Positions 226 through 16,794 of a stretch of DNA of 64,000 nucleotides are shown here, piece by piece. The stretch covers positions 186,001-250,000 of the forward strand of contig MU057989.1 of the NCBI GenBank assembly GCA_013265495.1. The letters are read 5' to 3'. Position 1 is the first letter of the stretch. The number at the start of each line of letters is the position of its first letter. This DNA comes from Vicugna vicugna. Its lineage: Eukaryota. The notes below the pieces were generated by a model. The model saw only the letters and a list, made by a program, of their open reading frames with translations, did no database searches and was not told where the DNA came from. Both the position numbers and the translations under genes were made by a program.

Positions 226-301
226 TTGGACCCCCTACTTCTCTCTAACCCCAGAAGCTGTCTACTCCCCCTACCCTATAACCCCCATTCTGTCCCCCCA
301 G

Positions 302-3850
<3,549 letters not shown>

Positions 3851-5136
3851 GCCCCAGAGCCAATCCACCGCCCATCCTGAGGTCCTCTGTATCAGAGCCT
3901 GGTCTGTCAGGCAAGGCTGGCCAAACCCTCGAGGGCTTGGTCACCTCCCCCCATCACCAAAAAAAAAAGCTTAAAAAATAAAATAAATTTAAAAGAAAAC
4001 CCTCGGGCTTGGCCTCGGGTCTGGGGTCTCCTGCAGGCTGGAAGTATCAATAAAAGCAATGAGCTTCTCTCTGCTTCTGTGTGCTTCGTGTGAGGGATTG
4101 GCTGGCTGGGTTGGGGACAGCCTGGGCCTGCAGCCTCCAACCAGCACCTTATTCATTCATTCAACAAACATCAATGCAGCTATGAGCCAGAGGCTATGTT
4201 CCAGATGGGAGAGATGTGAGAACAGAACAAACTCTGGCTTGCCCTTGGGGAGGGGGACATCAAGTGGTCACAATCTAGTGATGGAGCTGCATCCAAGTTA
4301 AGGGACTTGTGCAGGATTTGTGTTTTAATTTATGGTTAATTTATTAAAATGATCAAACTAATAAAAATCTCATTTTCCTTAAGCCTTTATACTTGCTTCT
4401 GGACATGATTGTATTGATTAATCTTATCATTTGGATGTAAAACTCACTTTTTTTCCACATTCATCCAAAACTCACTTTTATACACTTTGATTAATACTCA
4501 GTTAGATTATAAATTTGACAGATCAACATCTCCCTAAATATTTAACGTGCTTTACAAGCCTGATTAACTCAATTCTTTTAGACACTTCAAATAATTACAC
4601 ACACAATCTACTTGATCTCTTAAGGGGTGGGATATGTTGTGGGGTGTGTGTGGCACAAATCCAATCAGCAACTTCCTCTTAAGCACTTGAGGCGCTCTTG
4701 GAAATGAATAAATCAGACATTTAATATCTCAGATTACTGAACGCTTTCAAACATCTTAAAAAGCCAGTTACTGACCCAGCATCAGTAATCAGAACTACTG
4801 GATTGCCTTATTTTTCTCATCCCATGATTACAAATTTAGTAACTCAGAAACATGGAAGTACATTACTCTCCTATGCTGTGTCCAGAATGGAGGTTGCACA
4901 ACTGGGGATTGATTTGCTGTTCTGAACTTTGACCCAGGGCTTGGCCAGTCCCAGAAACTGTCTCTTTGAGCCTCTGTTCTGAGATGTGCCTTCCTAAGCC
5001 CATACCTCCTGCAACCTGATAAAGTTTTACCCTAAATGAAGAATTTGAGGTGAACAGAGTTGATGGAATTTGGCAGCCTATGAGGAACTCAGCTTGTCTT
5101 TCTATGGCCTGATTTAAGATACTTTTGGTGTAGGTG

Positions 5137-5250
5137 GGGAGGGTAAAGCTCAGGGGTAGAGTGTGTGCCTAGCGTGTATAAGGTTCTGGGTTCAATCCCC
5201 AGTACCTCCATTAAAAATAAATAAACCCTAATTACCCCCACCCCAGAATA
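5137..5250 (+). mobile_element. tRNA-derived SINE (camelid Vic-1-like)
   Basis: ggggagggtaaagctcaggggtagag…ctgggttcaatccccagtacctcc followed by A-rich tail and cctaattacc. Confidence 0.8.
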
Positions 5251-5539: not shown

Positions 5540-5690
5540 GGAGGGTATAGCTCAAGTGATAGAGCGCATGCTCGGCATGCAGGAGGTCCTGGGTTCAATC
5601 CCCATGACTTCCTCCAAGCTGAACTCAATGAAGAAACCTAATTGCCTCCACGACCGAATACAAACAATACAAGCAAATAAAAAAAAAAGT
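5540..5690 (+). mobile_element. tRNA-derived SINE (Vic-1-like)
   Basis: gggagggtatagctcaagtgatagagcgcatg…gggttcaatcccc; pol III A/B boxes and A-rich tail. Confidence 0.8.
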
Positions 5691-6074: not shown

Positions 6075-6202
6075 TTTTTTAAATTTTTTTAGGGGGGAGG
6101 TAATTAGGTTTATTTATTTTTAGAAGCAGTACTGGGGATTGAAAACTAGGACCTTGTGTATGCTAAGCATGCGCTCTGCCACTTGAGCTATACCTCCCCC
6201 CA
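6075..6202 (-). mobile_element. tRNA-derived SINE (Vic-1-like)
   Basis: Reverse complement of the same consensus (…gtactggggattgaa…cacttgagctatacctccccc). Confidence 0.8.
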
Positions 6203-6327
6203 AGATTGGCTTTTGAACTGATATCGTTTCATCTTTTCTATAAGATTATTCAGCGAAAATTTGCAAATTGTATAGATATTGACCTACTAGGAGCAACATT
6301 CCAGAATCTCTAAGGGCAAACCCCAGT

Positions 6328-6630
6328 GGGGCGGGGCGGGACGGTTGAGGGTTGCAGCGAATCAGTGGACCTTCTGGCCAGTTGGGGGCGCCCACCACAT
6401 AGGCACCGCCTGGCCTCAGGGATTAGTTGTGGGTGGAGCCTGCGGCATCTCTGGACACTGTGATCGGCTGGTACTAGGGGAGGGAGGGAAGAAGCCATTG
6501 AAGGAGAGCGCTGCTGCCTCTGATTGGCTGACACTGGTAACTCCAGGCGGCGGGAGAAACGCGTAGGTTCCCAGCGCACTGGCCTTTGATTGGCTGGAGC
6601 GCGTTGGCGCGCGGCTTCGATTGGCTGGGC
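6328..6630 (+). promoter_or_regulatory. CpG-island promoter with GC box and clustered inverted CCAAT boxes
   Basis: GGGGCGGGGCGGG at 6328-6340; GATTGGCTG (ATTGG cores at 6523, 6589, 6620) at the start of a CpG island. Confidence 0.6.
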
Positions 6631-6691
6631 CGTCCGCAGCGGGCTCGTAGCCACCTGCTGGAAGAACTAAAGCTCCGCAGGCTAGGCGATT

Positions 6692-7371
6692 ATGACCCTG
6701 GGGCGGCGGTGGCAGCAGCGACGGCCAAGCTGGCGGCGCGGCTTCCCCGCTCCCACTCGCATCCGCGGCTGGCCCGCGCCCGCGGCCACTCGCGGTTGGG
6801 CCGGGCCCGCTTGCCGCTGTCTCTGACTCCGCCGCCCGCGCCGTCCCTGCCGCACCCGCCGCTGCCCGGACTGCCGTCCAGCCTGAGCCCCGGGCCGCCT
6901 CCGCCGCCCTCGGCGCTCGCTCTGGCCGAGCTGCCACCGCTACCCGCGCTCCCGCTGCGGCCCGAGCCGCTGGCGCCCTGGGGCCCCAGCGCCCACGTGG
7001 CCCTGCCCCAGCTGCCGCCCTCGGCCTGCGCGCCCGCGCCGCCCGCCGCCGCGCTCGCCCTGCAGGACCTGCCGCGCCTGCCAGCGCCCTCGCCGCCGCC
7101 CGCGCACCTGCCACTGCCGCCGCTGCCCGAGGCCGCAGTCGCCAACACACCAGGGCCGGTGGGCGCGCGCGGCCGTCCGCCCCTCATCGCCGAGCCGCCC
7201 CCGCAGCTGCTGCCGCCGCTGCCCGCGCGGCCCTCGCCCTTCAACCTGCTGGCGTCGCCTGCGCCCCGCGACCCCTGGCAGCTGCCCGCCTTCCCCCCAC
7301 AGCTGCGGCCGCCGCCCCCGCCGCCCCCGCCGCCCCCGCCAACCTACTTTTTCCTGTTGCCACCCTGTTGA
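6692..7371 (+). CDS. Putative intronless proline/leucine/alanine-rich protein (~226 aa); ATG at 6692 is 1 nt out of frame, so possibly a pseudogene or sequence error
   Basis: Stop-free frame to TGA 7369-7371 with strong G/C at third positions (CCG, CTG, GCC, CCC). Promoter upstream; AATAAA at 7728 and 7779. Confidence 0.45.
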
Positions 7372-8255
7372 AAGTCTGGCCCTCCCCTGGAGGGGCTGCG
7401 GACGGGTGAGTAGGCAGCCCTGTCTGGAGACAGGGGGCTCTGCCCGTCGCCGCCTTCCCCGACGGCAGATTCAGAAGGCTTGGGTCACAGCCTGGCCGGA
7501 CGAAGAGGGCGCAGTGGAGGTTTGGGGGAGCAAGTCTGAAATTAAGCTCGTTTCTTCCATATTTTTTCCTACTGCTCTACAGCAAACCTCTTGCCTGGTC
7601 ATTTGAGAATGTAAGTGATCTATCCCCTATACTGATAAACTGGCTGATGATCTGGGCCGTGGGGCACTCAGCTTGAGGAAATGACAACAGAATTTGAAAT
7701 GCTTTAACTAAGAAAAAAGTATTTTTAAATAAAATGCTTTAACTGGCATACTCAAGATGTCTCATTTTCCCCTTTCACAATAAAGGTTTTGGATGCCATC
7801 GCTAAGGCCCTCCTATGCTTAAGTTTGTATGGCTTCTCAGAAACTGCCTTCCAAGTCTTAAAAAGTCAAACTCACAGCTAAAATAGATCCCGGGGTCTCC
7901 TGGGGCTGGCCGCACCAGGAAAACAGTGGTGTTGATGGTCAACCGATACTGGGCCCTGAAACAGGAGTATCACATGCAAGGCTTGTGAAGTCCTCCCCAC
8001 GGGACAGGAGAGTTCCCAGGGTGAGTTGTGAGAGGAAGCCCCTGTTCTCTCCCCATCTTTACCTGCCCCCCCCCCGCTCCCCCCTCATTTACAACTCAGA
8101 ATAAAGTTCCCTTTGTTAGGTGGCTTGGGCTTAGGTAACCAGGCAGACTCCTATCTCAAATGGGCTCTTCTACAGCAGCTCAGGAGTGGTATCAGGAAGC
8201 CAGCTTGACCTCGGGGGACCTGTGAGAGCCTGGAACTCACCAGGAAGAAAGACAA

Positions 8256-15393: not shown

Positions 15394-16059
15394 TTAGACG
15401 TAATTCTTAGTGGGGTACTCAGAGGGACCCCGGGAGGTGGTATGTGGGGCTGATGCTGAGTATCGGGCCATATAATGTCTGGAGCTCCGGGACCCCCAGG
15501 AGGGGCAGGTGCAGCACAGTAGCCCCCCACCCAGCAACAAAAGGCCAGAGGCAGCCCAGCCCACATAGAGGGAGGCTCCCAGCTCCCACTTTTGGGCCTC
15601 AGCCACCAGGGGGTTGTAGAAGTCTCGAATGATGGTGTTGGCCGTCCAGCACACGGGTATCAGGGTCAGGATCCCAGAGATGACAAAGATGATCCCTGAG
15701 GTGAGCACCAGTCGGGCCTTAGAGTCCTTGTCCATCACGCAGGTGGTGCACTTGGCTCCGGCAAGGTAGATCAGAAAGCCGAGCAGGGCCACAAGGAGAG
15801 TGATGACGCTGAGGGCTCGGGCAGCCTGCAGGTCCTGGGGCAGTGCCAGTAGCGAGTCAAACACCTTGCACTGCATCTGGCCTGTGCTCTGCACCACGCA
15901 GGACATCCACGGCCCCTCCCACACCACCTGGGCTACCACGATGCTGTTACCGATGAAGGCAGTCACTTTCCACAGGGGCAGGGCACAGGACACCAGGGCA
16001 TTCACCCAGCCAAGCAGTGACAGGACGATCCCCAGGATTTGCAGACCAGCAAGGGCCAT
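15394..16059 (-). CDS. CLDN6: Claudin-6 (221 aa)
   Basis: MALAGLQILGIVLSLLGW…GPSEYPTKNYV. The coding exon starts after an acceptor at 16080. Non-coding exon 1 ~16795-16836 ends in CAG|GTAAG. Minus-strand AATAAA at 14786-14791. Confidence 0.95.
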   Translation of the reverse strand: MALAGLQILGIVLSLLGWVNALVSCALPLWKVTAFIGNSIVVAQVVWEGPWMSCVVQSTGQMQCKVFDSLLALPQDLQAARALSVITLLVALLGFLIYLAGAKCTTCVMDKDSKARLVLTSGIIFVISGILTLIPVCWTANTIIRDFYNPLVAEAQKWELGASLYVGWAASGLLLLGGGLLCCTCPSWGSRSSRHYMARYSASAPHTTSRGPSEYPTKNYV

Positions 16060-16794
16060 GGTGAGGTGGAGGTTGAGGAACTGCACTGGGGGATGGAAGC
16101 AGAGTAATGTTAAAACCAGCTGGCCCTGTCCCCTCGTTCCCAGTTAGTTCTAACCCCCATGCCACATGCCATGGCCAACACACAGGATACCAAACGTATG
16201 AACCCTAGGAGTCAGGATACCATGTCCTGTGATGTGGGCAAGGCATGCTCCCTAAGCCTCATTTTCTCACAGGGAAAATGAACGTTTAATGCTTCAGCAT
16301 TTTTCTCCCCCTAGTTATGTGACAGGCATTGGCTTATATGAGTGCAAAAGTAAGCAGCCCAGTCCCCTCCCGCTCTCCATCTCTATTTCCCTTCTGAGCT
16401 GGCCCAAAGGAAGGTGTCCTCAGCCCTCAAGCCTGGAAGCCGTACGCCCTGGAAGGGTCCAATGGCGGCGCTAGCAGCAGGGTCCTCTCCCGACTGGTGA
16501 AGGGGAGGAACCCCGCCCCGGAGAGCAGCGCAGGTGGGGGAGGGGCGCCCAGGTTTCGGTGCCTTTGTCCCCGGGAAGGGGGGAGGGGCGTTTAACCTTT
16601 CTGCCGAAGGATCCCATCAGGGCCGAGGTTTAGGTGCAGCCCCCAACCAGGGACTCGCCGCCCCGAGTGGCTGCCATCAGATACGTCCAGGTTCTTCACA
16701 TGCACCCCAACCCAAAGCCGCCATGCCCCCTGTAACCCTCTCTGCGAGGCATCTACGTCCTCCTCCACAACATGCACCCTTCCGCCAGGCTTAC

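Follow-up and report, generated by a model that had tools for sequence, protein, structure and literature searches.

A proline-rich protein gene that is very likely common to placentals and one marsupial seems to have been overlooked because it appears to start with CUG and not AUG, and its human copy is frameshifted. It was analysed here in a 64,000-nucleotide stretch of the Vicugna vicugna genome (the window, to which all positions refer). That this is a real, conserved coding gene is highly probable. The best explanation as a whole, which we consider likely, would be a single-exon gene sitting between GREP1 and CLDN9, at least as old as the marsupial–placental split, with its own CpG-island/CCAAT promoter, translation from CUG only, and a disordered polyproline-II adaptor as its product. 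The features are collected in Table 1.

Table 1 Positions, strands and supporting observations of features at the proline-rich locus
Feature	Position	Strand	Basis or remark
GREP1-like exons	up to ~3850	+	window upstream of ORF
Presumed last GREP1 exon	3825..4054	+	own stop, AATAAA at 3977 and 4049; 2.7 kb 5′ of ORF
CpG island over promoter and coding sequence	6500..7400	.	GC 0.63–0.84; CpG observed/expected 0.8–1.1 (windows starting 6500–7200), 0.64 (start 7300)
Three reverse CCAAT boxes, likely NF-Y promoter	6523..6624	-	ATTGG at 6523, 6589 and 6620
Lineage-specific out-of-frame ATG ORF, 44 codons, overlapping the start	6692..6826	+	residue permitting ATG in 0/16 alignable orthologues
Secondary near-cognate codons GTG 6709 and ACG 6721	6709..6723	+	in frame, purine at −3, G at +4; not universal
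Proposed start CTG 6730-6732, context acggccaagCTGg (C −4, A −3, G +4)	6721..6733	+	Leu in 22/22
Predicted single-exon coding sequence, 213 codons and TGA, disordered Pro/Leu-rich protein	6730..7371	+	conservation, substitution pattern, homologues
Basic N-terminal segment, 8 Arg, no Asp/Glu in first 30 residues	6730..6819	+	translation, alignment
R-S-x-S-x-P at residues 7–12	6748-6765	+	R, S and S invariant (22/22); full motif in 19/22
Polyproline run leading to conserved FFL (7348-7356) and xPPC tail	7321..7368	+	FFL in 16/22, FYL in one more; present in marsupial
Candidate alternative GT-AG intron, donor after 7158, acceptor before 8120	7159..8119	+	one assembled rodent-type record, P0008
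AATAAA polyA signals	7728, 7779 (7728..7784); third at 8100	+	sequence

The reading frame from 6694, as given in the original prediction, was verified and is open from 6541 to the TGA at 7369-7371. Its third positions are indeed heavy in G/C (GC3 of 0.89), but first positions are almost equally so (GC1 of 0.85). Openness by itself is at chance level, as 771 of 2000 dinucleotide shuffles of 6730-7368 were stop-free in that frame, and at least one of the six frames was open in 1829 of 2000. Three-base periodicity is beyond chance, its chi2 being 97.8 when the highest value among 1000 shuffles was 22.9. The product, first put at about 226 aa, would be 213 aa when counted from the conserved candidate start CTG 6730.

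Homologues were matched in four protein searches (10 of 8000 candidates, 14 of 1.84 billion representatives, 8 of 4761, and 11 of 8000), which can return solely intact or modelled copies. The named sources are ungulates and whales (rhinoceros, takin, dolphin, baiji, blue whale), rodents (marmot, squirrel, kangaroo rat, guinea pig, hamster, vole, Onychomys, Arvicanthis), and others (siamang, colugo, elephant shrew, and the marsupial Antechinus). From the conserved Leu onward, identity to the window is 74–85% in 10 placentals and 59% in Antechinus, and 62 columns are invariant across 12 aligned sequences. In a set of 22 sequences, non-independent in that it holds several rodents and three whales, 17 stay in frame to the C-terminal FFL/FYL, marsupial included. 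All counts on this set leave out P0006 and P0010 (N-terminus missing), P0013 (unrelated), and P0007, P0011, P0014, P0015 and P0016, which are near-copies of P0017. These near-identical rodent-type records (P0007, P0011, P0014-P0017) are told apart by deletions of 4 residues and of 9 residues, the latter over the RSxSHP motif, and by a one-base shift, which reflect either assembly noise or polymorphism. In metagenome scans for orthologous DNA, none of 595 pattern matches was confirmed, and a second scan gave 0 matches.

The gene had been called unannotated. This is true in part, since RefSeq/GenBank carry, for other species, automatic models that are labelled ‘uncharacterized’ or are fused to GREP1. 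LOC131422032 (rhinoceros), LOC143442869 (Arvicanthis), and LOC127545667 (Antechinus) contain the same conserved core and C-terminus as the ORF, as do GREP1, ‘basic proline-rich protein-like’, and ‘collagen-like’ fusion models. Each model has an N-terminus of its own, borrowed from promoter sequence or GREP1 exons.

Codon positions of substitutions were exposed by orthologue tails that the databases had translated in a shifted frame. In seven such segments, 72 substitutions are at codon position 3 and 24 at position 1 or 2, a test that alone cannot separate the sense frame from an antisense frame sharing third positions. Six segments favour position 3, including those of guinea pig (37 vs 14, p = 9e-4) and P0016 (13 vs 2, p = 0.004), and one ties at 1-1. 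The synonymous share of the position-3 changes was not taken as independent evidence, as most codons are four-fold. Scattered indels together with a lack of synonymous bias had been named as the mark of a mere CpG-island artefact; indels do occur, in a few lineages, but synonymous bias is present.

Because open frames are expected by chance here and the position-3 test is blind to strand, the region might instead be a conserved non-coding regulatory CpG island, or code through the antisense frame 6690-7343, whose third positions coincide with those of the sense frame. The first of these is how the human locus was filed by Mudge et al. 2019 in the GENCODE survey, as a ‘putative regulatory region’ that was not annotated. 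The human orthologue regions, chr16:3004217-3004609+ and 3004608-3004832+ (PMC6886504, Supplemental Data S1 row 892 and S6 rows 1162 and 1708), were matched to the ORF by the peptides printed there, and S6 row 1162 places the region in an intron of the antisense non-coding transcript ENST00000570515.1. On the other hand, the PhyloCSF signal that the original prediction had called for is found in these supplemental rows. Per codon, the published scores are 5.97 (sense) and 2.99 (antisense) for one region, and 4.99 and 2.21 for the other. With the mle option on 58 mammals, they are 9.01 and 3.65, and 9.56 and 5.29, respectively. Sense exceeds antisense by a factor of about two or more, and the published values thus separate the sense from the antisense frame. 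The mle option, which can downgrade CpG false positives according to the same source, moved the human rank from 1301 to 1292 with 58 mammals and to 3294 with 100 vertebrates. Along with the position-3 excess, the stop position and C-terminal motif are conserved and the protein identity extends to the marsupial, while the ATG of the antisense frame requires Ile, found in just 5 of 19 scorable sequences. A regulatory or antisense origin of the signal is thus very improbable. Given ENST00000570515.1 in human, the CpG island may also serve an antisense RNA.

The start of the coding gene was examined in the alignment, where the first invariant column is the Leu at CTG 6730. As deduced from the neighbouring residues, the Leu codon itself being seen as CTG in the window only, base −3 is A in 21/22 (residue −1: 20 K, 1 T, 1 Q) and base +4 is G in 22/22 (residue +1: 21 A, 1 E). 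The changes K>T and A>E both retain the Kozak bases, and the Q of kangaroo rat corresponds to C at −3. No shared in-frame Met exists at or before the start of conservation, the nearest upstream Met being 3 to 369 residues away and differing by model, and a scan of 6300-7400 found no ATG in the window frame.

Conservation 5′ of the Leu fades gradually, with A at residue −2 in 17/22 and G-P-G in 15/21, and the longer upstream stretches of human and window are likewise in frame. A frame-shift test on the upstream part from orthologue proteins was not counted as proof, since the way gene models are built keeps them open upstream, which confounds the test.

The combination of −4C, −3A and +4G is the signature given for EIF4G2 and POLGARF in the available text of PMC9082881, and acggccaagCTGg fits the optimum predicted there at −4 to +4, not at +5/+6. 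It departs from the NAT1-motif start, stated in PMC13754004 as GCCGCCRNNXXXG; where that motif has GCCGCC at −9 to −4, or one mismatch to it, the window has ACGGCC, with two of six mismatched. No unusual hairpin was found 3′ of the CUG (z of −0.33). A CUG start was among the options originally named, and a conserved candidate is now placed at 6730. The CTG suggested at that time, at 6658, is unlikely, having C at −3 and a position not conserved beyond its lineage group. CUG 6730 is probably the sole or main start, as far as residue conservation can tell.

Initiation of the same gene could also be ragged or slightly upstream, with GUG 6709, ACG 6721 or their equivalents in use and the CUG just one start among several. 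GUG 6709 and ACG 6721 are in frame and have a favourable context (Table 1), upstream residues are partly conserved among placentals, and multiple non-AUG starts have been reported for such genes in the available part of 10.1101/2022.05.02.490320. However, neither position is start-compatible in all species, as −6 is V in 9/21 and A in 9/21, and −3 is T in 2/22 and A in 11/22. The marsupial aligns only from the Leu. We regard the ragged start as improbable and keep CUG 6730.

The ATG at 6692, described before as the only one nearby and in a different frame, is the sole ATG within 6300-7400 and opens frame +1 for 44 codons. It was then suspected that an ATG gene had been broken by a recent one-base loss, or mis-assembled, at 6692-6695, since one extra base produces an in-frame ATG with G at +4. 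This does not agree with the orthologues. The 17 residues that the window has from xLLE to PG are shared by dolphin, baiji, blue whale, and takin. These whale and takin proteins (4/4) are thus colinear with the window through 6652-6702, and an added G would break the frame. Moreover, none of the 16 orthologues with alignable PG/PR has a residue that allows ATG, and Met is there in no orthologue. The chance that an ATG was lost or mis-assembled here is minimal.

Because the needed residue is absent from all 16 alignable orthologues, ATG 6692 appears to be a new, out-of-frame codon specific to the window's lineage. Residues shared in the part 5′ of the Leu mark the window species as a hoofed mammal or a relative of whales. 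Its ORF is possibly a repressive upstream ORF if the transcript begins 5′ of it. Located 38 nt 5′ of the CUG, the new ATG may damp translation at the CUG further in this lineage.

In the proposed mechanism, transcription would start from the gene's own CpG-island promoter with tandem CCAAT boxes. The expected CCAAT promoter is in place upstream, but its boxes occur in reverse orientation only. In 15 sequences picked for genomic-looking upstream sequence, traces of CCAAT (IGW/IGL/DW readings) were found 69–165 nt 5′ of the conserved Leu in 15/15, the marsupial having it at 132 nt. Two of the window's boxes, within 6589-6624, are 31 bases apart. Such spacing resembles that of NF-Y pairs in cell-cycle and germ-cell promoters. 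The two AATAAA signals predicted downstream are present, plus a third one farther on.

A single-exon structure would complete this unit. P0008 matches 6700-7161 and then 8120-8230, with the GT and AG present in the window, and this one assembled record suggests that the sense RNA can be spliced and yield a shorter isoform. The frame of the exon 8120-8230 is not conserved, and in the window it meets a stop after four codons, so that roughly the final third of the protein would be missing from the isoform, similar to the effect of the human break. In RNA runs X15 and X16 of one study, 0.27 and 0.24 of the words are present, a measure of word share only; runs X17-X20, with small or uncertain word shares, were left out.

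The main structural rival to the CUG start is a splice acceptor right before the Leu. The ORF would then form the last coding exon of GREP1, or follow an unseen exon located upstream, an arrangement found in many automatic models. As many as 13 database models fuse the ORF to GREP1, two whale models have a junction in common, and the codon before Leu ends in AG in the window, as K and Q codons can, like an acceptor. However, junction-like points are at 12 different distances in the 13 models (with the P0020 value corrected by eye), and the whale junction maps to window frame +1, which is stopped at 6668. In the marsupial, residue −1 is Thr, whose codons never end in AG. The AG at 6728-6729 is preceded by 7/17 pyrimidines, and all nine AGs in 6600-6740 by 5–10/17, none with a pyrimidine tract by a cut of 13/17 that 27 sites in 300-4000 pass, although the test is soft in that the P0008 acceptor at 8119 itself scores 10/17. 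No acceptor that is shared, in frame, and equipped with a pyrimidine tract was found in this comparison. GREP1 comes with a stop and polyA signals of its own, and the CCAAT traces are conserved at promoter distance. We therefore give little credence to the ORF being a GREP1 exon. The models in question (P0006, P0012, P0018-P0023, P0025-P0029) skip the short last GREP1 exon before their fusion to the ORF. The GREP1 fusion models in RefSeq/GenBank are probably mis-annotations.

With a gene of its own, translation would start only at CUG 6730 in its near-optimal context, and ribosomes passing it by leaky scanning would meet no AUG farther on in the window's ORF.

The human peptides, as printed in the supplement, change frame about 120 codons after the Leu, whereas siamang is intact. 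Relative to the consensus, human differs at 4 of the 120 residues ahead of the break and at 12 of the 65 that follow it (Fisher p = 0.0015), as counted by hand against the alignment, with three of the four earlier changes near the break and the tail uncounted. Since the first 120 human codons are so near the consensus, the human gene would have been lost since the gibbon split, or else remodelled to a protein with a new C-terminus. An Ala-rich overlapping frame (that of 6696-7409; shown at ~7180-7409, + strand) spans the ORF and stays open to 7409, so that a frameshifted copy could gain a long new C-terminus. Records P0007 and P0016 shift into this frame, and the human break appears to do likewise.

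Colugo and guinea pig models and four assembled records also leave the frame, and assembly error is possible in these. Breaks in human, colugo, and guinea pig would be expected if a once-coding gene were decaying in several lineages and silent in the window species, where the new upstream ATG, having A at −3, would capture scanning ribosomes. The window is also without the PPGL motif found in 18/22. However, its frame is intact, and its 14 changes at conserved columns match other lineages (dolphin 14, P0003 12, siamang 11, marmot 11; placental range 3–24). The transcript may begin at or after ATG 6692, too. Silent decay is accordingly a poor prospect, and a functional coding gene is preferred. 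Relaxed selection in the window's lineage was considered separately and is unsupported, the count being within the placental range.

The more specific claim, that a CUG-only gene of no known family extends from marsupials to placentals, was passed over for want of an AUG, and is intact in siamang and frameshifted in the human reference, stands at roughly even chances on present sequence comparisons.

The predicted product would be a disordered polyproline-II adaptor of 200–215 residues. The many LPPLP/PxxP motifs noted before are borne out, with four PPLP and two PxxPxR in the window protein. PPLP and PxxPxR each occur in 22/22 sequences, such motifs being common in Pro-rich sequence, and PPxY occurs in just 8/22. 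PPLP has the form of a WW ligand, PxxPxR that of a class II SH3 ligand, and PPG with a hydrophobic residue, as in the PPGL lost from the window, that of a GYF ligand. The RSxSxP near the N-terminus has the form of a 14-3-3 mode I phosphosite. AlphaFold gave no fold (pTM of 0.11 and one 4-residue helix, from an alignment of 8). Pfam returned 0 families for 2/2 queries, Atlas no usable match, and PDB 0 sequences, and no Rfam match was found for the ORF. The earlier picture of a compact, uncharacterised gene for a disordered Pro-rich protein with its own promoter and polyA sites is supported.

Given the gene, its product might be a phosphorylation-switched scaffold for SH3/WW-type domains, of low abundance because the CUG start would cap its output. 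This role of a disordered adaptor made in small amounts is tentative, at somewhat below even chances. The basic tail may alternatively be a mitochondrial presequence or have a nuclear RS-like role.

Exclusive non-AUG initiation is known but rare. The few such mammalian genes were found inside known genes, and include EIF4G2 (GUG), TRPV6 (ACG), TEAD1, STIM2, and CCDC8, according to the accessible parts of 10.1101/2022.05.02.490320 and PMC9082881. Like them, the ORF has a conserved frame without an in-frame AUG and a near-cognate codon in a strong context. Unlike them, which are known proteins with ribosome-profiling or experimental support, it belongs to no family, and its initiation is inferred from conservation.

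POLGARF, a CUG-initiated protein of 260 aa (PMC9082881), resembles it in having C at −4, A at −3, and G at +4 and in having been found via conservation. The likeness is one of start context and discovery route. As described there, a 3′ stem-loop stimulates POLGARF, which overlaps the coding sequence of POLG, whereas this ORF is stand-alone and has no unusual hairpin. The human PhyloCSF regions are the orthologue of the ORF, with two frames in human and one in the window, and their rows in PMC6886504 propose neither a start codon nor a gene.

A literature search, largely over openly available papers, found no description of the gene. It is not mentioned in the accessible portions of the GREP1 preprint (10.1101/2020.03.10.981001) and PMC5762342, the latter of which gives no coordinates.

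A stand-alone gene missed for want of an AUG would expose a blind spot, in that ATG-less PhyloCSF hits in CpG islands were set aside as regulatory. The ‘putative regulatory region’ list, as available in PMC6886504, can be re-screened for the same signature. The gene would also correct many GREP1 fusion models, and the human frame break would make it a candidate for a gene that was lost or remodelled once gibbons had split off.

Downstream of the locus, the window contains an ORF at 13.3 kb and another at 15.4–16.1 kb, which from their translations we take to be CLDN9-like and CLDN6-like, respectively. The CLDN6-like ORF (15394-16143, − strand) reads EGPWMSC and KWELG where the neighbouring CLDN9-like ORF reads EGLWMSC and KRELG. 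GLW is part of the claudin signature, and with GLW changed to GPW, this CLDN6-like copy may be altered. Upstream, 5139-5210 (+ strand) gives an Rfam tRNA match of 45.7 bits and resembles the head of a tRNA-derived SINE, and similar SINE-like copies were spotted by eye near 5540-5690 and 6080-6200.
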